DNA of 26,517 nucleotides. Source: a virus (lineage: Duplodnaviria > Heunggongvirae > Uroviricota > Caudoviricetes). Below are positions 1 through 23,788 of the stretch, in pieces. The notes below the pieces were generated by a model that made no database searches, had not been told where the DNA came from, and worked only from the letters and a program-made list of their open reading frames with translations. The stretch is from the IMG/VR virus record IMGVR_UViG_2778261459_000001, positions 1 to 26,517 of that record. The stretch is one strand, 5' to 3'. Every line of letters begins with the position of its first letter. The stretch's first letter is position 1. The position numbers and the translations under genes are program-made.

Positions 1-11
1 TGGGATATCCG

Positions 12-383
12 GTGGCTAAGATATCGTGCGAGGAAATGACAATGGATTATTCACAGTTAAGTGATTTTGAAATTAACAGAATGGTAGGAGACATAATTTT
101 TAAAGGCCTTTGGGCAAGTAAACCGGAAACATCAGGGAATAACACCAACAAATGGTATTACGGAAATGCTGATACAACTTTTGAGCCATTAAATCATTTG
201 CCTGACTACTGCAATGATCCGAGCGCTTCATGGCCGATTATTGAGAAATACAGGATTTCTATCTTAGACCAGTTAACTGAATGGTGTGTGGATGCAAAAG
301 GCGTAAGCCCAATATTTGATACCAGACCTCTCCGCGCCGCCATGATTGTCTTTCTCCTGATGCAGGAGGCCAATAATGCTTAG
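12..383 (+). CDS. nin-region hypothetical protein (tentatively DUF2591/NinX-like); probable true start at ATG 42
   Basis: Long ORF in the same orientation as rusA/Q. GAGGAA at 30-35 sits 6 nt before ATG 42 ([13 protein letters not shown]...). The frame has no stop between window position 3 and 12, so the gene could begin upstream of the window. Family assignment is from memory only. Confidence 0.5.
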
Positions 384-570
384 CCCATCTCAATCCCTTC
401 AATACCTGAAAGAAAGCATAGAGCGGGCTTCAATGTGCACAGAGTGGATTCTATCTAGGTTTAGCGCATACAGAAGATTGCCGGTAAAGAGCATGCCAAG
501 CAAGTCGATGCTGCATATGCAAAAGAATGCGCGCTGGAAGGTATGGCGAGAACACAGGTTATGTGGCTAA
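376..570 (+). CDS. hypothetical small basic protein (64 aa); possibly a chimeric ORF created at a mosaic junction
   Basis: ATG 376 is preceded by AGGAGG (363-368) at 7 nt spacing and overlaps the stop of the upstream ORF (ATGCTTAG). No family recognised. Its 3' part overlaps, in another frame, the conserved ybcO-like tail. Confidence 0.3.
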
Positions 571-593
571 AAGAGGGGGTTATTAAGGCGTGA
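465..593 (+). pseudogene. ybcO: ybcO-like (DUF1364) 3' remnant lacking a start codon
   Basis: Frame 0 between in-frame stops at 456-458/462-464 and TGA 591-593 translates to ...[26 protein letters not shown], which I recall as the C-terminus of DLP12 YbcO. There is no ATG/GTG/TTG start for a full-length protein. Its stop overlaps the rusA GTG start, the conserved ybcO-rusA junction. Confidence 0.4.
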
Positions 594-952
594 ATACCTA
601 CAGCATCACATTACCCTGGCCTCCGAGCAATAATCGCTATTACCGCCATAATCGCGGGCGCACGCACGTCAGCGCAGAGGGGCAGGCATACCGCGATAAC
701 GTCGCCCGAATCATTAAAAACGCAATGCTGGATATCGGCCTGGCTATGCCTGTGAAAATCCGCATTGAGTGCCACATGCCGGATCGCCGTCGCCGTGACC
801 TGGATAATCTGCAAAAAGCCGCTTTTGACGCACTCACTAAAGCAGGTTTCTGGCTGGATGATGCTCAGGTCGTTGATTACCGCGTTGTGAAGATGCCTGT
901 TACCAAAGGTGGGAGGCTGGAACTGACCATCACCGAAATGGGGAATGAATGA
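590..952 (+). CDS. rusA: Holliday junction resolvase RusA (crossover junction endodeoxyribonuclease)
   Basis: 120-aa translation [24 protein letters not shown]...[10 protein letters not shown] matches my recollection of E. coli RusA essentially throughout. GTG start overlaps the upstream stop. Confidence 0.93.
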
Positions 953-1089
953 TGTTTGAGTTTAATATGGCAGAACTTCTTCGCCACCGCTGGGGGCGTC
1001 TGCGCTTATATCGTTTCCCCGGTTCTGTTTTGACCGATTACCGAATACTGAAGAATTACGCCAAAACCCTGACAGGAACAGGAGTATGA
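949..1089 (+). CDS. ylcG: small phage protein YlcG (46 aa)
   Basis: ATG 949 overlaps the rusA stop (ATGA). Translation [46 protein letters not shown] matches the DLP12 YlcG peptide from memory. Below the ORF-track size cut-off. Confidence 0.7.
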
Positions 1090-1174
1090 AGTCAGAGATA
1101 ACAATCAACTAATACTGTTTTGTTGATTTTTGCTTGTAATTGGCGTTCTGGTCTGATTTTTGTGGAGTAAGTTG

Positions 1175-1558
1175 ATGCGTGATATTCAGATGGTTCTTGA
1201 GCGTTGGGGTGCGTGGGCGGCTAATAATCATGAAGATGTGACCTGGTCGTCCATTGCCGCCGGTTTTAAGGGATTAATTCCTTCAAAAGTAAAATCTCGC
1301 CCGCAATGTTGTGACGATGACGCGATGATCATTTGCGGGTGCATGGCCCGTCTGAAAAAGAACAACAGCGATTTACACGATTTATTAGTAGATTATTATG
1401 TATGTGGTATGACATTCATGTCACTGGCAAGTAAGCATTGCTGCTCGGATGGTTATATCGGGAAAAGGTTACAGAAGGCTGAGGGCATAATTGAAGGGAT
1501 GTTAATGGCATTAGATATCCGGTTAGATATGGATATCGTTGCTAATAATTCTAATTGA
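1175..1558 (+). CDS. quuD: late-gene antiterminator Q (QuuD type)
   Basis: Translation from ATG 1175 ([24 protein letters not shown]...[11 protein letters not shown]...) matches DLP12 QuuD from memory. Position between rusA/ylcG and the lysis genes is canonical for Q. The track's 1160 start is a TTG extension. Confidence 0.9.
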
Positions 1559-1590
1559 TATGCAATTGTTTACTAAAAGTTATTAAAAAT

Positions 1591-1608
1591 GGGGCGTGGA
1601 AACGCCCC
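1591..1608 (-). terminator. hairpin GGGGCGT-GGAA-ACGCCCC with T-run on the minus strand (candidate nmpC terminator)
   Basis: 7-bp GC stem; on the minus strand it is followed by ATTTTTAATA. Lies downstream of the nmpC stop. Confidence 0.35.
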
Positions 1609-1695
1609 CAAAATAAAGGGTAATATATAACAGAAGGTTTATATAGTAAGAAGCAAGGTAGTGCTTCTAAAGGAAGTGGCTTGAGGGCTCCACTT

Positions 1696-1736
1696 ATATG
1701 TTGCGGAGGCAAAGCCTCCCGCAACATATCTTTTTC
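1696..1736 (+). terminator. strong rho-independent terminator (15-bp perfect stem, AAA loop, CTTTTTCG tail)
   Basis: ATATGTTGCGGAGGC-AAA-GCCTCCGCAACATAT followed by CTTTTT on the plus strand. About 140-180 nt downstream of the Q stop, so a tR'-like or early-right terminator; also abuts the nmpC stop. Confidence 0.55.
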
Positions 1737-1746
1737 GTAAGTCAGA

Positions 1747-2829
1747 TTAGAACTGATAAACCAGACCTACAGCGACGATGTCGTCGGTATCAATACCAGC
1801 TGTTTTGGTAAACTTACTATCGTCAATTAAGTTGATTTTGTAATCAACAAAAGTAGACATGTTTTTATTAAAGTAGTAAGTAGCACCGACATCGACATAC
1901 TTGACTAAGTCTCGGTCACCATGAACACCAAGGTCTTTACCTTTTGACTGAAGGTAAGCAACAGATGGGCGCAGACCGAAGTCAAACTGATATTGTGCTA
2001 CTGCTTCAAAGTTTTGTGCTTTGTTTGCAATATGGTTATTACCAAAAACGGTCATATTCTGAGTTTCAGAATATGTGGTAGCCAGATAGATATTGTTCGC
2101 ATCATATTTCAGGCCTGCAGCCCATACTTCCGCATTTTTGCCGGAGGCATTGAATTTGCTCTTACCATAGGCGACCTGACCGTCAGTGCGATCTGATTTA
2201 GCATAGGTTGCACCCACGCCGAATCCTTCATACTCATAAGTAGTGGAGAAACCGAAACCATCACCATTGGCTTCAGTTACGTCAGTGCGGTCATTTTTAC
2301 CCTGATACTGAGCAGCAAAGTTCAGGCCATCGACCAGACCAAAGAAGTCGTTGTTACGATAAGTTGCAACACCAGTAGTGCGACCAGTCATGAACACATC
2401 TGTTTGGGTCCAGGTATCACCACCGAATTCTGGCAGAACGTCAGTCCACGCACCGATGTCGTATGCTACACCGTAGTTACGGCCGTAATCGATGGAGCCG
2501 TAATCACCAAATTTCAGGCCTGCAAATGCAAGACGGGTTTTGTCTTTGGAAGAACCTTGAGATTCAGCACGGTTGCCTTTGAATTCATATTCCCACTGAC
2601 CGAAACCAGTCAGTTGATCGTTGATTTGGGTTTCACCTTTGAAGCCAAGACGGGCATAAGTAGTATCACCATCATCTGCATCATTAGAGGAGAAGTAGTG
2701 CTTGGCATTAACTTTCCCGTATAGATCCAGCTTGTTACTGTCTTTATTATAAATTTCAGCTGCCTGAGCAGACATCGCCATCAGTACTGATGCAGCTACA
2801 GCAGAAATTGCCACTGTTAATTTTTTCAT
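1747..2829 (-). CDS. nmpC: outer membrane porin, OmpC/OmpD family (NmpC / phage Lc-type), apparently intact
   Basis: Translation from ATG 2829: signal peptide [23 protein letters not shown], then mature [16 protein letters not shown]... ending ...VAVGLVYQF (C-terminal Phe typical of 16-strand porins). The track ORF 1747..2889 includes a 20-codon upstream extension. Confidence 0.9.
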
Positions 2830-3255
2830 TGTACGCCCTTTTTTTGAACTATTATTAAAAAATGATGTCACTGCGCGATAAATATTCATCTAATCAATGT
2901 GATTATTTCAAGATGTAAGTTTTAGTTTCTCATTTAATTTGTGAAGTAGATCTCTATTTTTATCTGAACCTTTTCTATCTAATCCTATTCATGGCTCTTG
3001 TCTGAACAAAAATAAATCTATTAGCTAATTTATATTAATGGCACTTATTTATAAGTGCTCTATAATTCTTTAGCTTAATTTGAACAAACTAAAAATAACA
3101 TCAGAAATTATTAACTGGTTATTTGTTGAAGTTTTCTTATGCATTTGTGGTGGTGTTTTGAACACTCGGTGGCATTCTCACAAATATCATTTAGTAGTTT
3201 ACGTACGTAAAAAATTGGTTATGCTGTTAAGAGTGGTTACTTCGTCACACAGCTT

Positions 3256-3289
3256 AAACCCGCCGTCGAGCGGGTTTTTCCATTTTTTG
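3256..3289 (+). terminator. hairpin AAACCCGC-CGTCGA-GCGGGTTT plus T-run, about 130 nt upstream of the holin gene (candidate tR'-like late terminator)
   Basis: GC-rich stem followed by TTTTCCATTTTTT on the plus strand, inside the AT-rich nmpC-essD intergenic region. Confidence 0.4.
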
Positions 3290-3417
3290 AGTCTCGATAT
3301 TAGCTGATAACTCAATACCTGAGTTATTCACTGACTCCAAATCTGTTACGTTTCTGCCTTTATTGCGATACGTAGTATCCCCTTAATTTACACCCGCTTT
3401 GTCTGCGAGGTGGGGTT

Positions 3418-3633
3418 ATGAAATCCATGGATAAGTTAACAACGGGTGTCGCCTATGGTACCTCAGCAGGTAGTGCCGGGTACTGGTTTTTACAGTTGCT
3501 CGATAAAGTCACGCCCTCACAGTGGGCGGCAATAGGTGTGCTGGGTAGCCTGGTATTTGGCCTGCTGACGTACCTGACAAACCTTTATTTCAAGATTAAA
3601 GAAGATAAGCGCAAGGCTGCGAGAGGTGAATAA
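3418..3633 (+). CDS. essD: class II holin / pinholin (phage 21 S-type)
   Basis: 71 aa, [31 protein letters not shown]...[32 protein letters not shown]: two hydrophobic segments and a charged C-terminus; resembles the S21 pinholin / DLP12 EssD from memory. SD GAGGTGGGG precedes the start. Confidence 0.9.
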
Positions 3634-4130
3634 TGCCTCCATCATTACGAAAAGCCGTTGCTGCTGCTATTGGTGGCGGAGCAATTGCTATAGCATCAGT
3701 GTTAATCACTGGCCCAAGTGGTAACGATGGTCTGGAAGGTGTCAGCTACATACCATACAAAGATATTGTTGGTGTATGGACTGTATGTCACGGGCATACA
3801 GGAAAAGACATCATGCTCGGTAAAACGTATACCAAAGCAGAATGCAAAGCACTCTTGAATAAAGACCTTGCCACTGTCGCCAGACAAATTAACCCGTACA
3901 TCACAGTCGATATACCGGAAACAACGCGCGGCGCTCTTTACTCGTTCGTCTACAACGTGGGTGCTGGCAATTTCAGAACATCGACGCTTCTTCGCAAAAT
4001 AAACCAGGGTGATATTAAAGGCGCATGTGATCAGCTACGGCGCTGGACATACGCTGGCGGTAATCAATGGAAAGGACTGATGACTCGCCGTGAGATTGAG
4101 CGTGAAGTCTGTTTGTGGGGGAAACAATGA
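3633..4130 (+). CDS. rrrD: SAR (signal-arrest-release) endolysin, lysozyme family
   Basis: 165 aa. N-terminal Gly/Ala-rich weakly hydrophobic segment ([20 protein letters not shown]) typical of SAR domains, followed by a lysozyme-like core. Start overlaps the holin stop. Confidence 0.9.
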
Positions 4131-4588
4131 GCAGAGTAACCGCGATTATCTCCGCTCTGGTTATCTGCATCATCGTCTGCCTGTCATTGGCTGTTAATCA
4201 TTACCGCGATAACGCCATTACCTACAAAGCCCAGCGCGACAAAAATGCCAGAGAACTGAAGCTGGCGAACTCGACAATTACTGACATGCAGATGCGTCAG
4301 CGTGATGTTGCTGCGCTCGATGCAAAATACACGAAGGAGTTAGCTGATGCGAAAGCTGAAAATGATGCTCTGCGTGATGATGTTGCCGCTGGTCGTCGTC
4401 GGTTGCACATCAAAGCAGTCTGTCAGTCAGTGCGTGAAGCCACCACCGCCTCCGGCGTGGATAATGCAGCCTCCCCCCGACTGGCAGACACCGCTGAACG
4501 GGATTATTTCACCCTCAGAGAGAGGCTGATCACTATGCAAAAACAACTGGAAGGAACCCAGAAGTATATTAATGAGCAGTGCAGATAG
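4127..4588 (+). CDS. rzpD: i-spanin Rz (inner membrane spanin subunit)
   Basis: ATG 4127 overlaps the endolysin stop (ATGA). N-terminal TM segment ([20 protein letters not shown]), then a charged coiled-coil-like periplasmic domain. Confidence 0.85.
4347..4529 (+). CDS. rzoD: o-spanin Rz1 lipoprotein, embedded in the +1 frame of Rz
   Basis: 60 aa, [24 protein letters not shown]...[15 protein letters not shown]...: lipobox VVGC and a proline-rich mature part, entirely inside the Rz gene in another frame. Confidence 0.85.
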
Positions 4589-4619
4589 CGCTGCCCATAT
4601 CGATGGGCAACTCATGCAA

Positions 4620-4913
4620 TTATTGTGAGCAATACACCCGCGCTTCCAGCGGAGTATAAATGCCTAAAGTAATAAAACCGAGCAATCCATTTACGAATGT
4701 TTGCTGGGTTTCTGTTTTAACCACATTTTCTGCGCCGCCACAAATTTTGGCTGCATCAACAGTTTTCTCCTGTCCAATTCCCGAAACGAAGAAATGATGG
4801 GTGATGGTTTCCTTTGGTGTTACTGCTGTCGGTTTGTTTCCAACAGTAAACGTCTGTTGAGCACATCCTGTAATAAGCATTGCCAGAGCGGCAGAAAACA
4901 ACATTTTTTTCAT
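4620..4913 (-). CDS. borD: Bor lipoprotein (serum-resistance lysogenic conversion protein)
   Basis: 97 aa from ATG 4913: MKKMLFSAALAMLITGCAQQTF... (lipobox LITGC). Opposite strand to the late operon, as in lambda. Track ORF 4620..4961 includes an unlikely upstream extension. Confidence 0.9.
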   Translation of the reverse strand: MKKMLFSAALAMLITGCAQQTFTVGNKPTAVTPKETITHHFFVSGIGQEKTVDAAKICGGAENVVKTETQQTFVNGLLGFITLGIYTPLEARVYCSQ

Positions 4914-5093
4914 CTTATTATCCTGCATTGTTAAAAACGGCAGAATCCTATGTGACAACAATTAAACGATAGTTAAATGGATTGATGAAAATTAAAACTA
5001 TATAGGTGTACGGTCAGACTATTGGAGGTAGTCAGGATTTGAATGTCAGTCTGTTGTCGGCATTCTGGCAATGCAATTTGGATAAAGCGGGGA

Positions 5094-5216
5094 TTAAAAA
5101 GATAGAGGCGAGCCGGTCAGGTAGAAATGAATCAGGCTCAAAGTGAAGCGGAAAAGGTCTGTGGTACAAGCTGATGCAGCCATAATTACAGCCTGATGAT
5201 TTGTGGAATGAAACAT
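5094..5216 (-). CDS. hypothetical 40-aa peptide with canonical Shine-Dalgarno (MFHSTNHQAVIMAASACTTDLFRFTLSLIHFYLTGSPLSF)
   Basis: Minus-strand ATG 5216..5214 is preceded by AGGAGG (plus-strand CCTCCT 5223-5228) at 6 nt spacing; stop at 5096..5094. Below the track cut-off. No homology recognised. Confidence 0.3.
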   Translation of the reverse strand: MFHSTNHQAVIMAASACTTDLFRFTLSLIHFYLTGSPLSF

Positions 5217-5438
5217 GTTGAACCTCCTTAATTGATGTTATTCGAGTGATGAAGGCATTCTGTCCTTCTATAGTGTCCAGTAAATCAAACAGGAAACTTG
5301 TCCAACGTGTTGGACAAGCCTCTCCATTAGTGAGTTGTATTGATCACAACTCTACAAAGAATTCATTACTGGGTAGATGAAAATAGTTTCACGATGAATG
5401 GAGGAGGCTATGTCGGTGGCTTCTTCATTGGAGTACAT

Positions 5439-5789
5439 ATGCCATCACGAATCCCAAAAGCCTGCCGTGTTCGTGGCTGCCGCCATACCACCACAGACCC
5501 GTCAGGCTATTGTGAAAGCCACAAAAGCGAAGGCTGGAAGCAATACAAGCCAGGACAATCCCGTCATCAGCGCGGTTATGGTTCGAAGTGGGATGTTATC
5601 CGCGTGCGTGTGTTGAAGCGTGACAAAGGCCTGTGTCAGTTATGTCTGCGTGCTGGTGTGGTGCGTGAGGCGAAAACCGTTGACCACATCATCCCTAAAG
5701 CGCATGGCGGCACTGATGCCGACTGTAATCTGCAGAGTCTGTGCTGGCCGTGTCATAAGGCGAAGACGGCCCGTGAACGACTTAAGTGA
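5439..5789 (+). CDS. HNH endonuclease (packaging-associated, HK97 gp74-like position)
   Basis: GGAG 7 nt upstream of ATG 5439. Translation contains CxxC...CxxC and H-N-H elements (CQLCLRAG...VDHIIPKAHGG...NLQSLCWPCH). Sits immediately upstream of the terminase small subunit. Confidence 0.85.
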   Translation: MPSRIPKACRVRGCRHTTTDPSGYCESHKSEGWKQYKPGQSRHQRGYGSKWDVIRVRVLKRDKGLCQLCLRAGVVREAKTVDHIIPKAHGGTDADCNLQSLCWPCHKAKTARERLK

Positions 5790-5815
5790 TAATAATTCTC
5801 AACTGTCTGAGGGGA

Positions 5816-5877
5816 GGGGCGGGTCAAATCTCTGTGACCTGACGTCTTCCGGACTGCCCGCCCCATCGTTTTTTTAT
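5816..5877 (+). terminator. GGGGCGGG...CCCGCCCC stem with a 33-nt loop followed by T7 run; terminator-like, or part of a cos region
   Basis: 8-bp GC stem (5816-5823 / 5857-5864), then ATCGTTTTTTTAT, between the HNH and terS genes. Confidence 0.3.
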
Positions 5878-5914
5878 ACCCGCGAAAAATGAAATTTAAC
5901 CAGGAGTGCCGCAT

Positions 5915-6400
5915 ATGGCTGGAACGGCGGGGCGTTCCGGGCGTCGCCCCAAGCCAACGGCGCGCAAGGCGCTGGCCGGAAACCCCGGCAAGCGAGCCCT
6001 GAACAAAGATGAACCTGTTTTTACGCCCATCAAAGGTGTTGAGCCACCGGAGTGGTTCGCTGAAGAAGATCTCCCTCTCGCCACGATCATGTGGCAACTG
6101 ACAACCAAAGAACTCTGCGGTCAGGGCCTGCTGTGCGTGACTGACCTGGCGGTACTTGAGCGGTGGTGTGTGGCCTATGAATTCTGGCGACGTGCCGTGA
6201 AAAATATTGCCAGACAGGGCAACACCATCACCGGTGCAATGGGCGGCATGGTCAAAAATCCGGAGCTGACCGCCAAAAAAGAACAGGAGTCCGAGATGAG
6301 CAGCACGGGGGCAATGCTCGGACTCGACCCCAGCAGCCGCCAGCGTCTGATTGGCCTGGCGGGGAAGAAGAAAGCCACTAACCCGTTTCTGACAATCTGA
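5915..6400 (+). CDS. terminase small subunit (P27-family-like)
   Basis: SD CAGGAG 8 nt before ATG 5915. N-terminal motif [29 protein letters not shown] is characteristic of this small-subunit family. Immediately upstream of the large subunit. Confidence 0.85.
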
Positions 6401-6413
6401 AAATCATCGAATC

Positions 6414-8147
6414 ATGAGCCGGAAATCTTACCCCAACGTAAATGCAGCCAATCAGTATGCCCGTGATGTCGTGCGCGGAAAGATTGTGGCCTGCCAGTTT
6501 GTGATTCAGGCCTGCCAGCGCCATCTTGATGACCTGATGGCGGAAAAAAGTAAGTCGTTTCGTTACCGCTTCGACAAGGACCTGGCTGAACGGGCCGCCA
6601 AATTTATTCAGCTGTTGCCGCATACCAAGGGTGAGTGGGCATTCAAACGGATGCCCATCACGCTGGAGCCGTGGCAGCTCTTTGTGATCTGCTGTGCGTT
6701 TGGCTGGGTCAATAAAGGTACCCGGCTGCGCCGCTTCCGGGAGGTGTATACCGAAATCCCCCGTAAGAACGGCAAATCGGCAATCTCTGCCGGTGTCGCC
6801 CTGTATTGTTTTGCCTGTGATAACGAGTTTGGCGCGGAAGTGTATTCCGGTGCCACGACAGAGAAACAGGCGTGGGAAGTCTTTCGCCCGGCGCGACTGA
6901 TGTGTAAACGCACACCCATGCTGACGGAAGCGTTCGGGATTGAGGTTAACGCCTCAAACATGAACCGTCCGGAGGATGGCGCGCGGTTTGAACCGCTGAT
7001 CGGTAACCCCGGTGATGGATCATCACCCCACTGTGCGGTGGTGGATGAATATCACGAGCACGCCACCGATGCGCTTTACACCACGATGCTTACCGGGATG
7101 GGGGCGCGACGTCAGCCACTGATGTGGGCCATTACTACTGCCGGGTACAACATTGAGGGGCCGTGCTACGACAAGCGGCGGGAAGTCATCGAGATGCTCA
7201 ACGGCTCGGTGCCTAACGATGAACTGTTCGGGATCATCTATACCGTTGATGAAGGTGACGACTGGACCGACCCGCAGGTGCTGGAAAAAGCCAATCCAAA
7301 TATTGGCGTGTCGGTTTATCGCGAATTTTTGTTAAGTCAGCAGCAGCGTGCGAAAAATAACGCCCGTCTGGCAAACGTCTTTAAAACAAAACACCTCAAT
7401 ATCTGGGTGTCGGCGCGTTCGGCGTATTTCAACCTGGTGAGCTGGCAGAGCTGCGAGGATAAATCACTGACCCTTGAGCAGTTCGAGGGGCAGCCGTGCA
7501 TTCTGGCCTTTGATCTGGCGCGTAAGCTGGATATGAACAGCATGGCGCGACTTTATACCCGCGAGATTGACGGTAAAACGCATTACTACAGTGTGGCCCC
7601 GCGCTTCTGGGTACCGTATGACACGGTGTACAGCGTCGAGAAAAATGAAGATAGACGGACAGCCGAACGCTTTCAGAAATGGGTGGAAATGGGCGTCCTG
7701 ACCGTTACCGATGGTGCAGAGGTGGATTATCGCTACATCCTCGAGGAGGCCAAAGCAGCGAACAAAATCAGCCCGGTCAGTGAGTCACCCATCGACCCCT
7801 TCGGGGCGACCGGGTTGTCACATGACCTTGCTGATGAAGACCTGAACCCCATCACTATCATTCAGAACTACACCAACATGTCCGACCCGATGAAAGAGCT
7901 GGAAGCGGCAATTGAATCGGGGCGCTTTCATCATGATGGCAATCCCATCATGACCTGGTGTATCGGCAACGTGGTCGGCAAAACCATTCCGGGTAACGAT
8001 GATGTGGTGAAGCCCGTCAAAGAGCAGGCGGAAAACAAAATCGATGGTGCAGTTGCGCTGATTATGGCGGTTGGCAGAGCCATGCTGTACGAGAAAGAAG
8101 ACACGTTGTCTGACCACATTGAGTCCTATGGGATCCGCTCGCTTTAA
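6414..8147 (+). CDS. terminase large subunit
   Basis: 577-aa ORF following terS; size, position and overall character match large terminase of HK97-like phages. Confidence 0.9.
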
Positions 8148-8158
8148 CTGAGGTAATT

Positions 8159-8341
8159 ATGATCATGCTGATTCTCGCGCCTCTGGTGGGCGTGCTGGGG
8201 GCGCTTTTGCTGGCGTATGGTGCCTGGCTGATTTATCCCCCGGCGGGGTTTGTTGTTGCCGGGGCGTTGTGTCTGTTCTGGTCGTGGCTGGTGGCGCGAT
8301 ATCTCGACCGTACACAGTCGTCTGTCGGCGGAGGTAAATAG
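8159..8341 (+). CDS. small membrane protein (60 aa, two predicted TM helices) between terminase and portal
   Basis: SD GAGGT before ATG 8159. Translation [49 protein letters not shown]... is almost entirely hydrophobic; stop overlaps the portal GTG start. Confidence 0.5.
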
Positions 8342-9582
8342 TGTTCTTTTCGGGATTATTTCAACGAAAAAGTGACGCACCGGTGACCACGCCAGCAGAG
8401 CTGGCGGATGCTATCGGGTTGTCCTACGACACCTATACCGGAAAGCAGATCAGCAGCCAGCGGGCCATGCGACTGACGGCGGTTTTTTCCTGTGTCAGGG
8501 TGCTGGCGGAGTCGGTCGGGATGTTGCCCTGCAACCTGTATCACCTGAACGGCAGCCTGAAGCAGAGAGCCACTGGCGAACGTCTGCATAAGCTGATCTC
8601 CACGCATCCCAATGGCTATATGACGCCGCAGGAGTTCTGGGAGCTGGTGGTCACCTGTCTGTGCCTGCGGGGAAACTTTTACGCCTACAAAGTGAAAGCA
8701 TTTGGCGAAGTGGCTGAACTGCTGCCCGTCGATCCCGGCTGTGTGGTACCGAAGCTTAACAGTAGCTGGGAGCCGGTCTATCAGGTCACATTCCCGGATG
8801 GCTCCACGGATGTACTGAGCCAGGAGGATATCTGGCATGTGCGCACGCTGACGCTGGACGGACTGGTGGGGCTGAATCCCATCGCCTATGCCCGCGAGGC
8901 AATATCGCTGGCGGCAGCGACCGAAGAGCACGGGGCCAGACTGTTCAGCAATGGCGCGGTGACGTCGGGTGTGTTGCGTACAGAGCAGACGCTGTCAGAT
9001 CAGGCTTATGAGCGCCTGAAGAAAGATTTTGAGGAGCGTCACACCGGGCTTGGCAATGCTCACCGCCCGATGATCCTTGAGATGGGGCTGGACTGGAAGT
9101 CGATGGCGCTGAACGCCGAGGACAGCCAGTTCCTGGAAACCCGCAAGTTTCAGCTTGAAGAAATCTGTCGTCTGTTCCGGGTGCCGTTGCACATGGTGCA
9201 GAACACCGATCGCGCCACCTTCAACAATATCGAAGAGCTGGGGCTGGGATTTATCAACTATTCACTGGTGCCGTATCTGACCCGCATCGAACAGCGGATC
9301 AACACCGGACTGGTACGAAAAAGTAAGCAGGGCGTTTATTACGCCAAATTTAACGCCGGGGCGTTACTGCGCGGGGATATGAAGTCCCGTTTTGAAGCCT
9401 ACGCCACCGGGATCAACTGGGGAATTTACTCTCCCAATGACTGCCGCGACCTGGAAGATATGAATCCGCGTCCCGGTGGTGATGTCTATCTCACACCGAT
9501 GAACATGACCACGAAACCCTCCGATGGCAGTAAAGCCGGTAAGCAGAAGGATAACGCCAATGCAGACGAAACAACGTCTTGA
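8341..9582 (+). CDS. portal protein (HK97 family)
   Basis: 413 aa following terL; GTG start with GGAGGT SD; canonical position and size. Confidence 0.9.
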   Translation: MFFSGLFQRKSDAPVTTPAELADAIGLSYDTYTGKQISSQRAMRLTAVFSCVRVLAESVGMLPCNLYHLNGSLKQRATGERLHKLISTHPNGYMTPQEFWELVVTCLCLRGNFYAYKVKAFGEVAELLPVDPGCVVPKLNSSWEPVYQVTFPDGSTDVLSQEDIWHVRTLTLDGLVGLNPIAYAREAISLAAATEEHGARLFSNGAVTSGVLRTEQTLSDQAYERLKKDFEERHTGLGNAHRPMILEMGLDWKSMALNAEDSQFLETRKFQLEEICRLFRVPLHMVQNTDRATFNNIEELGLGFINYSLVPYLTRIEQRINTGLVRKSKQGVYYAKFNAGALLRGDMKSRFEAYATGINWGIYSPNDCRDLEDMNPRPGGDVYLTPMNMTTKPSDGSKAGKQKDNANADETTS

Positions 9583-10210
9583 TGTACCGCTGAGTCTGAA
9601 ATCTGTCAGTGACTCCGGTGAGTTTGAAGGGTATGGCTCCGTCTTTGGTGTAAAGGACAGCCACGATGATGTGGTGATGTCCGGGGCATTTGCTGCTTCC
9701 CTGCGGGCGTGGAGTGACAGAAAAGCGTTACCTGCGCTGCTCTGGCAGCACCGCATGGATGAACCCATCGGTGTTTACACCGAAATGAAGGAAGACGATG
9801 TCGGGCTTTACGTCAGGGGGCGGTTGCTCATTGATGATGATCCCCTGGCAAAACGCGCACATGCACACATGAAGGCCGGTTCGTTAACCGGCCTTTCTAT
9901 TGGGTACGTCCTGAAGGACTGGGAATACGACCGGACGAAAGAAGCCTTTCTGCTGAAAGAAATCGACCTCTGGGAAGTCAGTCTGGTGACGTTTCCGTCT
10001 AACGACGAGGCGCGGATCAGCGACGTCAAGAACGCGCTGGCCCGCGGGGAAATCCCCGAACAGAAAAAAATCGAAAGAGTCCTGCGTGATGTCGGACTCT
10101 CCCGTACCCAGGCCAAAGCATTCATGGCCGGGGGCTATGGCGCACTGTCCCTGCGCGACGCTGAGGATGTGGGCTCTGCACTGAATGCACTGAAAAATCT
10201 GAACTTCTAA
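9560..10210 (+). CDS. prohead maturation protease (HK97 family, peptidase U35-like)
   Basis: AAGGA SD 8 nt before ATG 9560, overlapping the portal 3' end; between portal and capsid genes. The track's 9524 start is an alternative. Confidence 0.85.
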   Translation: MQTKQRLDVPLSLKSVSDSGEFEGYGSVFGVKDSHDDVVMSGAFAASLRAWSDRKALPALLWQHRMDEPIGVYTEMKEDDVGLYVRGRLLIDDDPLAKRAHAHMKAGSLTGLSIGYVLKDWEYDRTKEAFLLKEIDLWEVSLVTFPSNDEARISDVKNALARGEIPEQKKIERVLRDVGLSRTQAKAFMAGGYGALSLRDAEDVGSALNALKNLNF

Positions 10211-10224
10211 TCAGGAGAAATACG

Positions 10225-11430
10225 ATGGCGGTAGATATTAAAGATGTCGAACAGGTCGCGCAGGAGCTGCAGCAGAAGTTTGACGACTTCAAAGCAAAGA
10301 ACGACAAGCGCGTGGATGCGATTGAGCAGGAAAAAGGCAAGCTTGCCGGGCAGGTGGAAACCCTGAACGGGAAACTCAGCGAGCTGGAAAATCTCAAAAG
10401 CGATCTTGAAAAAGAGCTGCTTGAGCTGAAACGTCCGGCAGGTGGCGCGCAAAATAAACTGGCCACCGAGCATAAAGAAGCGTTTGTGGGCTTTTTGCGT
10501 AAAGGCCGTGAAGATGGTCTGCGCGATCTGGAGCGTAAGGCATTGCAGGTGGGCACCGATGAAGACGGTGGCTATGCCGTGCCGGAAGCGCTGGATCGCA
10601 ACATTCTCACCCTGCTGAAAGATGAAGTGGTGATGCGCCAGGAAGCCACGGTGATCACCGTTGGCGGTTCCGACTACAAAAAACTGGTGAATCTGGGCGG
10701 CACGGCTTCCGGATGGGTGGGGGAAACGGATACGCGATCCCAGACTGCCACCTCCAGACTGGAGCTGATTGAACCTCTCATGGGGGAAATCTACGGCAAC
10801 CCGCAGGCCACCCAGAAAATGCTGGATGATGCCTTCTTCAACGTGGAGGCCTGGATCAACAGCGAGCTGGCAACCGAATTTGCCGAACAGGAAGAAATTG
10901 CCTTTACCACCGGCGATGGTACCAAGAAGCCGAAAGGGTTCCTGGCGTATGAATCCACTGATGAAACCGATAAGGTCCGGGCGTTCGGCAAACTTCAGCA
11001 TATTGTATCCGGCGAAGCGACCGCGGTGACCGCAGACGCCATTATCAAACTGATTTACACGCTGCGAAAGGCACACCGCACTGGCGCGAAGTTCATGATG
11101 AACAACAACAGCCTGTTTGCCATCCGTCTGCTGAAAGACACCGAGGGTAACTATCTGTGGCGTCCGGGGCTGGAACTGGGGCAGCCGTCCTCTCTGGCGG
11201 GTTACGGTATCGCTGAAAACGAACAGATGCCGGATATCGCCGCTGATGCGAAAGCCATTGCATTTGGTAACTTCAAACGGGGTTACACCATCGTTGACCG
11301 TATCGGCACCCGCATTCTGCGTGATCCGTACACCAATAAACCGTTTGTCGGTTTTTATACCACCAAGCGCACCGGCGGGATGCTGGTCGATTCGCAGGCC
11401 ATCAAACTGCTGAAGATTGCAGCGGCGTAA
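10225..11430 (+). CDS. major capsid protein (HK97 fold) with N-terminal coiled-coil delta/scaffold domain
   Basis: 401 aa. N-terminal ~100 residues are highly charged and heptad-like (EQVAQELQQKFDDFKAKNDKRVDAIEQEKGKLAGQVETLNGKLSELENLKSDLEKELLELK); no separate scaffold gene is present, as in HK97. Confidence 0.92.
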   Translation: MAVDIKDVEQVAQELQQKFDDFKAKNDKRVDAIEQEKGKLAGQVETLNGKLSELENLKSDLEKELLELKRPAGGAQNKLATEHKEAFVGFLRKGREDGLRDLERKALQVGTDEDGGYAVPEALDRNILTLLKDEVVMRQEATVITVGGSDYKKLVNLGGTASGWVGETDTRSQTATSRLELIEPLMGEIYGNPQATQKMLDDAFFNVEAWINSELATEFAEQEEIAFTTGDGTKKPKGFLAYESTDETDKVRAFGKLQHIVSGEATAVTADAIIKLIYTLRKAHRTGAKFMMNNNSLFAIRLLKDTEGNYLWRPGLELGQPSSLAGYGIAENEQMPDIAADAKAIAFGNFKRGYTIVDRIGTRILRDPYTNKPFVGFYTTKRTGGMLVDSQAIKLLKIAAA

Positions 11431-11437
11431 TCATTCA

Positions 11438-11457
11438 GGGGCGCGGAACCGCGCCCC
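11438..11457 (+). terminator. GC hairpin GGGGCGCG-GAAC-CGCGCCCC immediately after the capsid gene (attenuator/terminator)
   Basis: Perfect 8-bp GC stem 8 nt after the capsid stop, followed by TGTTCTGA (weak U-tract). Confidence 0.45.
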
Positions 11458-11479
11458 CTGTTCTGACGGGTGAAGAATC

Positions 11480-11680
11480 ATGATCCTGAAACAAGATCTG
11501 AAATGGTCACCGGACGGTATGCGTGTTGAGGTCATTCGGGCCGGTGAGTATGACGACGGGGCGCTTCCTGCCCGGGTGCAGGAGATTGCACTTCAGGCCG
11601 GGTTAGCTGAGCGCGGAACCAATGCAAAAAGCAGTAAAGCGGCAAAAGAGAAAAAAGCCACGACCAGTAAAGAGAGCTGA
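11480..11680 (+). CDS. hypothetical protein (66 aa), Lys/Ala-rich C-terminus
   Basis: ORF in the late operon between capsid and connector genes; weak SD; no family recognised. Confidence 0.4.
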   Translation: MILKQDLKWSPDGMRVEVIRAGEYDDGALPARVQEIALQAGLAERGTNAKSSKAAKEKKATTSKES

Positions 11681-11682
11681 GT

Positions 11683-12006
11683 ATGCTTCTGACAATGGAA
11701 GAGATTAAAGCCCAACTCCGGCTGGATGAGGATTTCGATGCTGATGACCGCCATCTGCAACTGCTGGCCTGTGCGGCGCAAAAGCGGACGGAAACGTATC
11801 TGAACCGGAAGCTCTATGCACCGGATGAATCCATTCCGGACAGCGATCCGGACGGGCTGCACCTGCCGGATGATATTCGTCTGGGGATGCTGATGCTTAT
11901 CAGCCATTTTTACGAAAACCGCTCGTCGGTTACGGAAGTGGAGAAACTCGACATGCCGCAGAGTTTTGGCTGGCTTGTCGGCCCGTACAGGTACTTTCCG
12001 CAATGA
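11683..12006 (+). CDS. head-tail connector (gp6-like)
   Basis: 107 aa in the canonical post-capsid position; start MLLTMEEIKAQLRLD... resembles gp6-type connector/DNA-packaging proteins. Confidence 0.7.
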   Translation: MLLTMEEIKAQLRLDEDFDADDRHLQLLACAAQKRTETYLNRKLYAPDESIPDSDPDGLHLPDDIRLGMLMLISHFYENRSSVTEVEKLDMPQSFGWLVGPYRYFPQ

Positions 12007-12413
12007 AAATTCGTCAGGCGCAGACCAGCGCAACTTACATTCTGCCGGACCCCGGTGAACTGAATAAATGCGTCCTGATCCGCCTGCGGGTGGATATGCC
12101 CGCGGATAACTTTGGCGTGGAGCCTCAATACCCGGTTACGTTCCGGACATGGGCGAAGGTTATCCAGACCAGTGCCACCACCTGGCAGGAAACCGCGCAG
12201 ACCGGGGACGCCATCACCCATTACATCACCATTCGTTACCGCCGGGGGATCACCGCTGATTATGAGGTGGTCTGCGGTGACAGTGTGTACCGGGTGAAAC
12301 GTCAGCGCGATCTGAACGGGGCGCGGCGCTTTCTGCTGCTGGAGTGTACGGAGCTGGGCGAATGTAGGCAGAGTCACGGAGGCAACAATGACGACTTCCT
12401 TTTTGCACGTTGA
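12003..12413 (+). CDS. head closure / head-tail adaptor protein
   Basis: ATG overlaps the upstream stop (ATGA); size and position fit a head-tail joining protein. Confidence 0.65.
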   Translation: MKIRQAQTSATYILPDPGELNKCVLIRLRVDMPADNFGVEPQYPVTFRTWAKVIQTSATTWQETAQTGDAITHYITIRYRRGITADYEVVCGDSVYRVKRQRDLNGARRFLLLECTELGECRQSHGGNNDDFLFAR

Positions 12414-12894
12414 TTTTCAGCAGCCCGCGGAGATGCGCTTTAACCGCGCCCGTGTCCGGCGGGCGTTTGTCACGATTGGTCAGCGTCATATGCGTGATGC
12501 CCGTCGGCTGGTGATGCGCCGTGCGCGGTCGGCACCGGGTGAAAACCCCGGTTATCAGACCGGACGCCTGGCTCGTTCGATTGGTTACATGGTACCCAGA
12601 GCCAGTAAACATCGCCCTGGTTTTATGGCACGTATAGCCCCTAACCAGCGTAATGGAGAGGGAAACCGCCGTATCACCGGTGATTTTTATCCGGCTTTTT
12701 TGTTCTATGGCGTGAGGCGAGGGGCAAAGCGTCGTCGCAGCCATCATCGTGGCGCATCCGGTGGCAGCGGCTGGCGACTGGCTCCACGTAATAACTTCAT
12801 GGTGGAAACGCTTGAAAAGAACCGCAGCTGGACACGCTATTTTCTGGCGCGGGAATTGCGTAAATCACTGAAGCCGGAGCGACGACACAGATGA
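12388..12894 (+). CDS. HK97 gp10-like morphogenesis protein, Arg-rich
   Basis: GGAGG 7 nt before ATG 12388. Basic, Arg-rich 168-aa protein in the head-to-tail joining region. Confidence 0.65.
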   Translation: MTTSFLHVDFQQPAEMRFNRARVRRAFVTIGQRHMRDARRLVMRRARSAPGENPGYQTGRLARSIGYMVPRASKHRPGFMARIAPNQRNGEGNRRITGDFYPAFLFYGVRRGAKRRRSHHRGASGGSGWRLAPRNNFMVETLEKNRSWTRYFLARELRKSLKPERRHR

Positions 12895-13451
12895 AACTGA
12901 CGCCTGTTATTGCTGCACTGCGTGCCCGCTGTCCGTATTTTGAAAACCGGGTTGCAGGCGCGGCCCAGTTCAAAAATCTGCCGGAGGTCGGAAAGCTGAA
13001 ACTCCCGGCGGCATATGTTGTACCGGGTGATGATTCTCCGGGAGAAAACAAAAGCCAGACCGACTACTGGCAGGAGCTGAAAGAGGGTTTCTCCGTGGTT
13101 GTCATACTGAGTAACGGGCGTGATGAGCGCGGTCAGTTTGCCTCGTATGATGTGGTGGACGATGTCCGGCAGATGCTCTTTAAGGCTCTGCTGGGCTGGA
13201 ACCCGGAGGCGTGCGGTAACCCGATTACCTATGACGGCGGCACGCTGCTGGATCTGAATCGTCATGAGCTGATTTATCAGTTCGATTTTTCGGTCATCAG
13301 CGAGCTGACTGAAGACGATACCCGCCATCAGGATGACCTGAACAGTCTGGATGAACTGCAAACGCTGGCGATTGATGTTGATTATCTCGAGCCCGGTAAC
13401 GGGCCTGACGGCGATATCGAACATCACACCGAAATAACCCTTCCTTCCTGA
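12891..13451 (+). CDS. Mu gp37-like tail component (tail completion/terminator-like)
   Basis: 186 aa, start overlaps the upstream stop; lies just upstream of the DUF2635-like/sheath/tube block as in Mu-like tail modules. Confidence 0.6.
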   Translation: MKLTPVIAALRARCPYFENRVAGAAQFKNLPEVGKLKLPAAYVVPGDDSPGENKSQTDYWQELKEGFSVVVILSNGRDERGQFASYDVVDDVRQMLFKALLGWNPEACGNPITYDGGTLLDLNRHELIYQFDFSVISELTEDDTRHQDDLNSLDELQTLAIDVDYLEPGNGPDGDIEHHTEITLPS

Positions 13452-13459
13452 GGATCCTC

Positions 13460-13630
13460 ATGTTTGTGAAACCTGTTAAAGGGCGGTCAGTTCCTGACCC
13501 TGCCCGCGGCGACCTTTTGCCCGCCGAAGGGCGAAATGTTGACGAGAACAACTACTGGCTGCGCCGTGAAGCAGCGGGTGATATCCGGCGCGTGAATAAA
13601 AAGGTGAACACCGATGACGATAAGCTTTAA
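13460..13630 (+). CDS. small protein (56 aa), Mu gp38 / DUF2635-like, overlapping the sheath start
   Basis: ATG 13460 to TAA 13628-13630: MFVKPVKGRSVPDPARGDLLPAEGRNVDENNYWLRREAAGDIRRVNKKVNTDDDKL. Below the track cut-off. Mu-like phages carry a small gene in this position. Confidence 0.5.
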   Translation: MFVKPVKGRSVPDPARGDLLPAEGRNVDENNYWLRREAAGDIRRVNKKVNTDDDKL

Positions 13631-15110: not shown

Positions 15111-15466
15111 TGGCCCGTATCGGGGGAACCTGTTATTTCAAAATTGACGGTCAGCAGCTATCGCTGACCGGCGGCATTGAGGTGCCCATGAACAGGACGG
15201 TCAATGATGACATCATCGGCCTGGACGGTTCAGTGGACCGCAAGGAAACTCACCGTGCGCCTTATGTCAAAGGGAGCTTCAAGGTGCCGAAGAATTTTCC
15301 GGTGAGCAAAATCACCTCGTCTGATGAGATGACCATCACTACCGAGCTGGCGAACGGTCAGGTCTATGTATTGTCGTCCGCCTGGCTGCACGGCGAAGCG
15401 AACCATAATGCCGAAGAAGGCACAGTCGATCTTGAGTTCCACGGTGAAGAAGGGGATTACCAGTAA
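15110..15466 (+). CDS. tail tube protein (Mu gpM-like)
   Basis: 118 aa, TAATG overlap with the sheath gene; canonical sheath-tube pair. Confidence 0.85.
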   Translation: MARIGGTCYFKIDGQQLSLTGGIEVPMNRTVNDDIIGLDGSVDRKETHRAPYVKGSFKVPKNFPVSKITSSDEMTITTELANGQVYVLSSAWLHGEANHNAEEGTVDLEFHGEEGDYQ

Positions 15467-15735
15467 TGAAAGAGCTTGAGTTAAAGAAACCGATTATTGC
15501 TCATGGCGAGACACTCTCCGTACTGGAGTTTGATGAACCCACCGGGAAGGATGTCCGCGAGCTGGGGTATCCCTACCAGATGAATCAGGATGAGTCCGTC
15601 AGACTTCTGGCGCATGTGGTGTCGAAATACATTGTGCGGCTGGCGAAAGTGCCGCAAAGCTCTGTCGACCAGATGTCTCCGGCAGACCTGAATGCAGCGG
15701 CGTGGCTTGTGGCCGGTTTTTTCCTCCAGGCCTGA
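15466..15735 (+). CDS. tail assembly chaperone (upstream frame of a frameshift pair)
   Basis: 89 aa, TAATG overlap with the tube gene, directly upstream of the tape measure gene. Confidence 0.7.
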   Translation: MKELELKKPIIAHGETLSVLEFDEPTGKDVRELGYPYQMNQDESVRLLAHVVSKYIVRLAKVPQSSVDQMSPADLNAAAWLVAGFFLQA

Positions 15736-15884
15736 CGGCTGAATACCTCACTGATCGCTTCTTTGACTGCGCCAGTTACTGGCGCATTAATCCCTTCGAA
15801 TTGCTGAATATGCCGATCAGTGAAATTCCCTTGCTGGTCAGTCAGGCAAACAGGATAGAGCAGGAGAAACGCACACATGGCTGA
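15717..15884 (+). other. putative programmed -1 frameshift: slippery heptamer T_TTT_TTC (15717-15723) and -1 frame extension to 15884
   Basis: In the chaperone frame the codons are GGT TTT TTC 12 codons before the stop. The -1 frame is open from the slip site to TGA 15882-15884, which overlaps the tape measure ATG (15877), giving a fusion ending ...RIEQEKRTHG. Confidence 0.5.
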
Positions 15885-17712: not shown

Positions 17713-17733
17713 TGAAAAATTAATCTGTTAATG

Positions 17734-17759
17734 AGTCCCACTCCGGTGGGATTTTTTAT
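17734..17759 (+). terminator. hairpin AGTCCCAC-TCCG-GTGGGATT followed by TTTTTAT, just after the tape measure gene
   Basis: Stem-loop plus U-tract 22 nt after the tape measure stop; lies inside the track's upstream extension of the next ORF, supporting the later start at 17773. Confidence 0.45.
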
Positions 17760-17772
17760 GTACGGAGTTTAT

Positions 17773-22770: not shown

Positions 22771-22773
22771 TCC

Positions 22774-23787: not shown

Positions 23788-23788
23788 T

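Follow-up and report, generated by a model that had tools for sequence, protein, structure and literature searches.

A porin-bearing cargo probably separates the antiterminator gene Q from its late promoter in a DLP12-type prophage segment

In phage lambda, the late promoter is constitutive, a terminator lies close to it, and Q modifies the polymerase (Q, pR', 6S RNA, tR'); the pR' leader is 194 nt long. Phage 21 has a compact layout directly after its Q gene: a sigma-70 promoter, then a terminator no more than ~50 nt beyond the start. Its record places the Q-binding element in the spacer, the pause element at +2 to +8 and the annotated terminator at +3 to +50, and its lysis genes are of the S21/SAR-endolysin type. 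In the 933W/Sp5-type Stx phages, the source of StxS, Q has 144 aa and its final codons overlap the promoter block. What is described there as tR' is the second terminator, at a distance of 258 nt from the start (PMC7547250); tRNAs and stx come after it. In the K-12 prophage DLP12 (qsr'), the porin gene nmpC lies between quuD and the lysis genes essD/rrrD/rzpD.

A comparison of the window, the whole 26,517-nt stretch of viral DNA analysed here (IMG/VR record IMGVR_UViG_2778261459_000001), with DLP12 shows the same gene order, strands and spacer, at ~89–96% DNA identity over the region. Q on the plus strand is followed by an intact porin gene on the minus strand, an AT-rich spacer and an S21-type holin gene on the plus strand (Table 1). 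The same layout of Q, opposite-strand porin and lysis genes is found in phages 434B, ev017, mEp332 and Turner, and the Q–porin–holin segment (window 1100–3700) is 99.7% identical to ev017. Of 5426 complete E. coli genomes, 2391 contain at least 80% of the module, as do many sequenced phages. The module is the common NmpC-type porin cargo of lambda-like E. coli prophages and is already known; the prophage segment is among the commonest in E. coli, and its porin, Q and lysis genes have all been described earlier. The module itself is of small importance, and the useful result is a relocated start of late transcription.

Table 1. Coordinates of the features of the module, in positions of the window
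Feature	Position	Strand	Basis
Antiterminator Q, QuuD type, 127 aa	1175–1558	+	Pfam PF06530 positions 1–118 of 118, E 6.7e-54
Q–porin interval: converging terminators and likely IpeX small-RNA homologue	1571–1746	-	Terminator scan, folds
Intact NmpC/Lc/OmpD-type general porin, 360 aa	1747–2829	-	Porin_1 profile, OmpC structures
Porin 5' UTR and promoter region (PnmpC)	2830–3028	-	Alignment of 9 copies; PMC11677980
Extra promoter P1, -10 TATTAT 2850–2855, start A2862	2850–2862	+	Orthologous base in K-12 Cappable-seq
18-bp palindrome GCACTTAT-TT-ATAAGTGC	3041–3058		8-nt arms, 100% complementary
TATAAT hexamer	3061–3066	+	Promoter scan; conserved among relatives
Late promoter PR'	3198–3234	+	Cassette model, linkage to Q, orthologous start sites
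Late terminator tR', stem AAACCCGC / GCGGGTTT and T-run	3256–3289	+	Terminator scan, fold
Late lysis cassette served by PR'	3418–4588	+	Pfam, ORFs, K-12 identity
S21-type pinholin	3418–3633	+	Pfam Phage_holin_2_1
SAR endolysin	3633–4130	+	Pfam Phage_lysozyme
Rz	4127–4588	+	ORF; embedded Rz1 4347–4529

The features that an earlier note on this DNA had read from its letters (the porin, the palindrome, TATAAT and a plus-strand terminator) are all present where that note had put them. Porin and terminator are clearly beyond what chance would produce. The opposite-strand gene between Q and the holin is indeed an intact OmpC-family porin. It covers positions 1–337 of 337 of Pfam Porin_1 (PF00267, E 1.9e-151), scores 521 bits against the NCBIfam 'porin OmpC' subfamily (cut-off 484), and its residues 24–360 are colinear with the mature OmpC/OmpK36 crystal chains from the first to the last residue. 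Reading and structure alignment agree on an N-terminal signal peptide, and the C-terminus, ...VYQF, has an aromatic last residue. The start codon (MKKLTV...) is at 2829, and the mechanical open reading frame extends to 2889. Assignment to the NmpC type, made in the same note, is borne out by 91% protein identity to K-12 nmpC over the 342 residues before IS5. The K-12 gene is cut by IS5 near its 3' end, as had been said, while the porin in the window is intact. A further relative is presumably lc, the porin of phage PA-2. At least 80 viral contigs of IMG/VR encode the identical porin protein; a porin search of viral contigs for diverse spacers gave, as its best 80 loci, only loci with this identical porin.

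Intact copies of nmpC in prophages can be expressed: in uropathogenic E. coli CFT073 the nmpC genes c1560 and c2348 were seen as mRNA and protein, more strongly at 37 C (PMC12890032). The promoter PnmpC is active in K-12 and is removed by deletion of -199 to -1 from the start codon; CRP activates it, and OmpR, IHF and MprA repress it (PMC11677980). Both observations are indirect evidence that the present porin may be expressed in the lysogen. In an alignment of nine diverged copies, the region from 2830 to ~2975 is nearly invariant. On the minus strand, no convincing -35/-10 pair for the porin was found by eye and none by promoter scan.

The Q protein is 96% identical to K-12 Q, and its core is homologous to that of the Stx phages (77% protein identity). 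It shares its Pfam family with the Q of phage 21 but is only distantly related to it, matching the Q21 structures 6p18/6jnx with E 4e-8. The Q of lambda, in contrast, belongs to a different protein family. A family alignment reveals a conserved core of ~120 aa with an L(D/E)MD end and then a short allele-specific tail. The interval between Q and the porin is 96% identical to K-12. It contains a minus-strand terminator at 1608–1591 (terminator scan; minus-strand fold z = -4.2) and a strong plus-strand hairpin at 1696–1729, followed by CTTTTT (fold z = -7.0), which from its predicted fold could be used as a plus-strand terminator after Q. The RNA of this interval, with a putative left boundary at 1571, is likely a homologue of IpeX, a small RNA reported by Castillo-Keller et al. 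2006. An Rfam scan of window 1–6000 with E up to 1 gave no IpeX and no late leader; it returned one chance miRNA match. Downstream of the porin, the holin is 100% identical to K-12 EssD and the endolysin 98% to RrrD at the protein level, and the S21/SAR-endolysin lysis genes are of the kind carried by phage 21.

We consider it very probable that this segment is a late-control module with cargo between Q and Q's own promoter–terminator cassette, the late promoter PR' being at 3198–3225 and its start at A3232. The -35 element TTTACG (3198–3203) and the -10 element TATGCT (3220–3225) are separated by a 16-nt spacer. Among 30 genomic loci with a related Q, the cassette abuts the Q stop in 23, with the motif TTTACGwwCGTAAA at -12 to +29 bp. 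Such Q-adjacent cassettes come from eight genera: Escherichia, Shigella, Trabulsiella, Pantoea, Citrobacter, Xenorhabdus, Providencia and Morganella. The window contains the motif a single time; 0.01 occurrences would be expected by chance. A model (R1) made from the Q-adjacent cassettes of other genera, with all DLP12-type sequences left out, finds a single strong match in the window, at 3191–3258 (58.7 bits, E 1e-17). The earlier suggestion that the late promoter lies between porin and holin rather than directly after Q is upheld by this match together with the orthologous start sites described below. In the window the cassette is 1640 bp downstream of the Q stop, and not immediately after Q as in the 23 relatives. 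Since Q would act in trans on DNA, we regard this distance as a feature of the layout and not of the mechanism. Two E. coli/Shigella loci (L013 and L014) represent the empty site: Q is followed by the cassette 29 bp on and by an S21-type holin, and the porin is missing.

Conservation within the block also fits a promoter of this kind. The PR' block is invariant across nine diverged copies, and PR', tR', P1 and TATAATT are identical in K-12 and the window. The alignment of 23 sequences is invariant at TTTACG..CGTAAAA, at TA...T, and at the A in position 2 and the T in position 6 of a second hexamer, which is the pattern expected, at the level of sequence, of a -35, a -10 and a sigma-region-2 pause element. 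The -35 lies within a 14-bp palindrome, TTTACGTACGTAAA (3198–3211), a candidate Q-binding element. The second -10-like hexamer, AAGAGT (3229–3234), is a candidate sigma-dependent pause element; it overlaps the start site (-3 to +3) and is thus nearer than in lambda or phage 21. The promoters of phage 21 and of the window are unrelated: phage 21 has the direct repeats ATTGAGCA/AATGAGCA and the window the palindrome TTTACGwwCGTAAAA. Direct repeats around the start of the window's promoter, CTGTTAAG / GTGGTTAC, were seen by eye; as a Q21-like binding element they are speculative, being inconsistent across the family. No structure is claimed for a leader hairpin GUGG...UCAC in the first 17 nt: its three outermost pairs are constant, and the genera disagree at the fourth.

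In published maps of two related prophages, transcription starts on the base orthologous to A3232. Cappable-seq of K-12 reports a plus-strand start at U00096.2 576,452 (PMC4782308, Additional file 1). Shifted by +777 to version 3, this is the A 7 nt after TATGCT, orthologous to A3232. Its score is weak (1.7); the ~50-nt RNA may have been lost in library preparation, or the promoter may be genuinely weak. For Sakai Sp5, dRNA-seq gives a PR' start at 1,266,203 and a tR' 3' end 258 nt further (PMC7547250). Located on the Sakai sequence, this start is 7 nt past the TATCAT of the homologous block. The coordinate version shift of +142 that we assume for Sakai, from the position of stx2A, is supported because the mapped 3' end then falls on the last T of the terminator T-run. 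The homology with the Stx phages spans window 3195–3279 (promoter block, start and first hairpin) at 78% DNA identity; their second terminator has no counterpart in the window, where only the first hairpin precedes the holin.

The plus-strand terminator proposed in the earlier note can be identified as the late terminator tR' from terminator scan, fold and kept position. Its stem (3256–3277) begins at +25, 24 nt after A3232, and is followed by the T-run; the RNA hairpin belongs to the centroid structure of the fold (-12 kcal/mol). A hairpin with T-run at +24 to +43 is found in 20 of the 26 cassettes listed, which include the window itself and a near-identical K-12-type copy, and the stem sequences differ.

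The following mechanism is suggested. A cargo from ~1540 to ~3195 would have been inserted between Q and its cognate promoter–terminator cassette, carrying a few new final codons for Q, the converging terminators with the IpeX-like RNA, the porin and its CRP/OmpR-controlled promoter region. Between Q and the cognate PR' downstream there are 1.64 kb; phage 21 has its cassette directly after Q. Without Q, polymerase starting at A3232 would stop at 3256–3289 and produce a predicted ~50-nt RNA. By analogy with Q21, which shares its Pfam family, the Q protein translated from the early transcript would act in trans and bind the promoter DNA, most likely at the invariant TTTACGwwCGTAAAA block. It would load on polymerase paused at the -10-like AAGAGT, and the modified polymerase would read past the terminator and transcribe the genes for holin, endolysin and spanin. 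The bases of the Q-binding and pause elements are candidates picked out by conservation, and the present element is predicted to depend on Q. With PR' placed beyond the porin, late transcription would never cross the porin gene head-on, and the porin could therefore serve as a conversion gene, its own promoter driving it in the lysogen.

Two other positions of the late promoter around the porin have to be weighed. The canonical layout, with PR' directly after Q (1559–1746) and late transcription running antisense through the porin, is the textbook arrangement; a weak TTGATA...AGTTAT-like pair can be seen by eye at ~1555–1583, and a plus-strand hairpin with a T-run lies at 1696–1740. The interval, however, is taken up by converging terminators and the opposite-strand IpeX-like RNA, promoter scan and cassette model are both empty there, and K-12 has no plus-strand start from the end of quuD to inside nmpC, so we give this layout almost no credence. 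The position favoured by the earlier note, at the palindrome and TATAAT in the AT-rich spacer, fares little better and is already disfavoured; we hold it to be very unlikely. Here ATGGCA and TATAAT, 17 nt apart (3038–3066), would form the late promoter, with the palindrome as operator or Q site and a ~215-nt leader ending at 3256–3289, as in lambda pR' with its 6S RNA. The spacer is much as that note had described it (~590 bp): the 588 bp of 2830–3417 fall to a GC content of 0.25–0.29. In the promoter scan this pair, with 10 of 12 matches, is the best sigma-70 consensus in the spacer, TATAATT is kept in 86 of 87 related spacers, and a plus-strand terminator follows downstream. Against this, close relatives differ freely in both the palindrome and the -35-like hexamer. 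The spacer contains ten inverted repeats of 7 nt or more, the palindrome among them. Of the 87 related spacers, most of which accompany the identical porin, no more than 19 have the palindrome in perfect form, and its right arm is hypervariable among relatives; K-12 has GCTGTTAT...ATAAGTGC in place of the perfect palindrome. It is real in the present allele, and the alignment indicates an allele-specific sequence under no selection rather than a conserved element. K-12 has the same TATAATT, and its Cappable-seq map contains no plus-strand start between 576,081 and 576,452 (window 2862 to 3232), a stretch that includes this hexamer. Nothing similar accompanies Q outside this group of genomes, in the loci of other genera, and there is no score for the cassette model at this site. 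The lambda-like spacing of ~215 nt, which had suggested this position, is coincidental, because the promoter is at 3198–3225 with its start at A3232 and the hairpin from +25; nor does the lambda analogy apply, since the leader of the present Q family is compact (~50 nt), like that of phage 21. A 75-aa open reading frame at 3080–3307, in the same spacer, was rejected as a gene: it has no Pfam match, and relatives vary in blocks and not at every third base.

Somewhat less improbable than either, though still a poor candidate, is a Q-responsive promoter next to the porin start with a leader of ~540 nt. It could be the sigma-E-type essDp (GAACT/TCACT, +1 at ~2878) or the sigma-70-like P1 (TATTAT, A2862). 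The P1 start, 33 nt from the porin ATG and directed toward the holin, is orthologous to a strong K-12 plus-strand start (576,081, score 90; PMC4782308), and the region is invariant among relatives. P1 overlaps the sigma-E-like pair GAACT (2846–2850) / TCACT (2868–2872). In work by Rueggeberg et al. from 2013 and 2015, the DLP12 lysis promoter is reportedly sigma-E dependent and apparently lies ~355 bp further upstream. The primer numbering of PMC7918800 (-121 to +650) places the essDp +1 near window 2878, and the same paper, citing Rueggeberg et al., describes control of the lysis operon by Q and RpoE; for DLP12, Q-dependent terminator read-through is reportedly the finding of the 2013 study. 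However, the site lies inside the porin cargo, in the porin 5' UTR region, and this location alone would explain its conservation. Neither the Q-adjacent cassettes of other genera nor L013, the E. coli locus lacking the porin, contain it. For the known Q proteins, loading takes place only at a sigma-70 pause close to the promoter and beside the Q-binding site (10.1101/651190). Furthermore, the sole construct that could be mapped, the reporter fragment of PMC7918800 (window 2757–3541), includes 3198–3289, and therefore any Q effect measured with it could derive from PR'.

Placing PR' at 3198–3225 corrects the late transcription start of DLP12-type prophages: promoter and terminator are just upstream of the holin gene, and the porin separates them from Q. 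This position accounts for the presence, in a late-control region, of an oppositely oriented porin gene that is expressed in the lysogen and yet does not collide with late transcription. 'essD promoter' reporters like that of PMC7918800 carry two or more plus-strand promoters, P1 and PR' among them, together with a terminator, so sigma-E and Q effects need to be separated in them.

A wider reading, which we put forward tentatively and think rather unlikely, is that the Q–promoter junction is a recurrent landing site for cargo and that constitutive plus-strand RNAs of the lysogen have regulatory roles. Two such RNAs are predicted: the ~50-nt RNA from PR' to tR', and one of ~420 nt from P1 (A2862) to tR', which starts, on the strand opposite the porin, within the region of its 5' UTR. 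Porin expression might be their target, by analogy with StxS from the homologous Stx-phage leader. If this reading is true, P1, and not a promoter at which Q loads, would be what was published as the sigma-E 'essDp' of DLP12. The junction cargo is the porin with the IpeX-like RNA in the window, a 345-aa membrane ORF with two small ORFs in Citrobacter braakii (locus L019), and possibly a lipocalin with YbgA in two further loci (L002 and L003).

Bases 1–5000 of the window form a lambda-like late-control region, whose features are collected below together with those of the virion module.

Features of the late-control region and of the virion module, in window coordinates
Feature	Coordinates	Strand	Remarks
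NinX	12–383
RusA	590–952
Antiterminator Q	1175–1558		127 aa; Pfam PF06530
Terminator	1608–1591	−	Q–porin gap
Porin	1747–2829	opposite to Q	360 aa
AT-rich spacer	2830–3417		588 bp
S21-type holin	3418–3633
SAR endolysin	3633–4130
Rz/Rz1			downstream of SAR endolysin
bor	within 1–5000	−
HNH endonuclease, small and large terminase, portal, HK97-type capsid	5340–24205	+
Contractile tail sheath	13614–15110	+
Tape measure, gp53-like tail fibre	5340–24205	+

The OmpC-family porin between Q and the holin is complete, as had been proposed. It covers the Porin_1 profile in full (E 1.9e-151), and mature OmpC structures are colinear end to end with its residues 24–360. The same module is present in the laboratory phage 434B and in DLP12, the cryptic prophage of K-12; in DLP12 nmpC is indeed broken by IS5, which sits near its 3′ end. 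Matches to the 2.6-kb Q–porin–holin segment are found in 4672 of 5426 complete E. coli genomes, with at least 80% of it present in 2391, and in 132 phage records, among which ev017, 2G7b and PhiR57_1 reach 99.6–99.7% identity. The identical porin protein occurs in at least 80 viral contigs. Given these counts and the DLP12 and 434B copies, the module is an ordinary, previously described element. An 85% identical fragment of the window Q is encoded on L038, a 2.1-kb contig that bears the label of a Candidatus Nanosynbacter MAG; the bin is probably contaminated with enterobacterial DNA.

The earlier note placed the late promoter in the porin–holin spacer instead of directly after Q, and assigned it to a palindrome (3041–3058) and an adjacent TATAAT (3061–3066) ahead of a plus-strand terminator (3256–3289). 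All of these elements are present in the AT-rich spacer, whose GC content falls to a minimum of 0.25–0.29. The observation is confirmed; its interpretation is partly right, on the place, but wrong on the promoter. The corrected anatomy of this late-control module is a small but useful clarification. The first lead was an O157-type prophage, L004, in which the sequence overlapping the last Q codons aligns with window 3195–3279 at 78%; the same block is found at the Q end in about 290 Stx-phage records. We sampled 30 genomic loci encoding relatives of the window Q. The 14-bp palindrome TTTACG[TA/AT]CGTAAA lies at −12 to +29 bp from the Q stop in 23 of them (Escherichia, Shigella, Trabulsiella, Pantoea, Citrobacter, Xenorhabdus, Providencia and Morganella) and at +140 in one more, and within this sample it is kilobases from Q only in DLP12-type loci and one Citrobacter braakii locus. 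Its one occurrence in the window, with 0.01 expected by chance, is at 3198, 1640 bp past the Q stop.

The aligned cassettes share, in order, an A-rich run, TTTACG..CGTAAAA, a 16-nt spacing, TAnnnT, G(T/A)TAAGAGTG and a GC-rich hairpin with a T-run. The −35 hexamer, the upstream half of the spacer and positions 1, 2 and 6 of the −10 hexamer are invariant. A sequence model made from the 23 Q-adjacent cassettes, with the DLP12-type loci left out, gives a single match in the window, at 3191–3258 (58.7 bits, E 1e-17), and no score near Q or near the TATAAT. A second hexamer, AAGAGT (3229–3234), has invariant positions 2 and 6 among the aligned cassettes. Within the −10 element, sigma region 2 is strictest in its recognition of these same two positions, which makes AAGAGT a good candidate for a sigma-dependent pause element.

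For Sp5, the Stx2 prophage of Sakai, dRNA-seq places the start of the late promoter PR′ at 1,266,203 and Term-seq the 3′ end at 1,266,460, a transcript of 258 nt (StxS paper, PMC7547250). With a shift of +142 on the current Sakai record, the 3′ end falls on the last T of the T-run of the late terminator tR′ and the start on an A located 7 nt past TATCAT of the cassette block. For K-12, Cappable-seq gives plus-strand starts at 576,081 (score 90) and 576,452 (score 1.7) of U00096.2 and none between them (PMC4782308). Since essD starts at 577,398 in version 3, the coordinate shift is +777, a mapping supported by the fact that all listed K-12 starts then fall 3–7 nt past a −10-like hexamer. Position 576,452 becomes the bracketed A of TATGCTgttaag[A]gtgg, a sequence identical in K-12 and the window, so that the start is placed at A3232.

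TATAATT is kept in 86 of 87 related spacers, and a promoter scan pairs TATAAT with ATGGCA at 17 nt; K-12 carries the same hexamer as TATAATT, but has no Cappable-seq start there. The palindrome is perfect in only 19 of the 87 spacers. Its right arm varies (AAGTGC, AAGCGC, AAGCAC, AAGAGA, GGGGGT and others) even where the porin protein is identical, and no sign of selection for its symmetry is seen among these spacers. In an alignment of nine spacer copies, from segments about 90–96% identical to the window over 1100–3700, the segment holding the palindrome is the most variable, while 2830–2975 is almost invariant and 3196–3355 is invariant save single substitutions in a few copies. Downstream of TATAATT, at 3067–3195, invariant blocks (TAATTT, CTAAAAATAAC, GAAATTATT, GGTTATTTGTTGA and others) alternate with 4–9-nt hypervariable patches, a pattern unlike that of a coding region.

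The spacing of about 215 nt between TATAAT and terminator had been likened to a late promoter with its tR′, an arrangement known from lambda. From A3232, the hairpin begins at +25 (stem 3256–3277, then the T-run) and the T-run ends near +50. This is the compact architecture of phage 21, whose Q belongs to the same family and has been solved. Its annotated genome shows a −35 of TTGACA, the Q-binding element ATTGAGCA/AATGAGCA within the spacer, the start site, the pause element TAAGCTG at +2..+8 and a terminator from +3 to +50. A lambda-like distance is therefore irrelevant for the PF06530 Q family. Among 26 listed cassettes, 20 place the start of the hairpin between +24 and +43 with stems that are not alike, a sign that conservation concerns termination as a function and not the sequence itself. 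In three of nine diverged copies (L120, L123 and L125), a G-to-T change at the equivalent of window 3272, in the right arm of the tR′ stem (GAGCTGG), would weaken the terminator. In Stx phages (868–895 of the Sakai Sp5 locus L009; 1558–1586 of L008), a homologous hairpin and T7 run occupy about +23..+50 in the transcript from PR′ and precede the terminator at +258 that is described as tR′. A product of ~50 nt might have escaped notice in RNA-seq libraries.

The porin has a promoter of its own, PnmpC, no more than 199 bp from the start codon; it is activated by CRP and repressed by OmpR, IHF and MprA (PMC11677980), and its position is consistent with the invariant stretch 2830–2975. The strong K-12 start 576,081 corresponds to A2862 on the plus strand, 7 nt past TATTAT (2850–2855); it is directed toward the holin, with the porin ATG only 33 nt away. 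Transcripts from it should stop at 3256–3289 unless the terminator leaks; such an RNA would measure about 420 nt, with its 5′ end within the region of the porin 5′ UTR but on the other strand. The primer sequences of PMC7918800 put '-121' at window 2757, and thus the +1 of essDp, the published promoter of the DLP12 lysis genes, near 2878. This adjoins a sigma-E-like GAACT/TCACT pair (2846–2880 region, overlapping the A2862 promoter), which seems to be the published essDp. The reporter fragment of that study spans window 2757–3541, so PR′ and tR′ are also inside.

In the Q–porin gap (1571–1746), a very stable hairpin at 1696–1729 (z = −7.0) resembles a terminator that would act on the plus strand downstream of Q. 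The gap presumably corresponds to the small RNA IpeX of DLP12; it has no match in Rfam.

Compared with a Stx-type locus, homology ends at window 1507 and restarts at 3195. Members of the Q family share a core of 120 aa that ends in LEMD and vary in the tail that comes after it, and in two E. coli/Shigella loci (L013, L014) Q is followed by the cassette 29 bp on and an S21-type holin, with no porin. Judged from these comparisons, the porin segment (roughly 1540–3195) looks like an insert placed between Q and the promoter that belongs to it, with the Q tail replaced. Locus L006 is a decayed copy with the porin deleted. Unrelated cargo is seen at this junction in C. braakii L019 (4890–7228), namely, on the opposite strand, a 345-aa membrane ORF with two small ORFs, and in E. 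coli L002 (3954–5832) and L003 a lipocalin and a YbgA gene follow Q, with a diverged promoter block farther on. Such unlike cargo suggests that insertions have occurred repeatedly at the Q/PR′ junction.

The structural genes do not follow lambda, and the window thus combines an early and lysis region of lambda type with a virion module of myovirus type. Directly after the tail-fibre genes, on the opposite strand (24426–25508, minus), lies a gene for a 360-aa Acyl_transf_3 membrane acyltransferase. Genes of this kind carry out O-antigen acetylation in Shigella phages, and this one is a second likely conversion gene.
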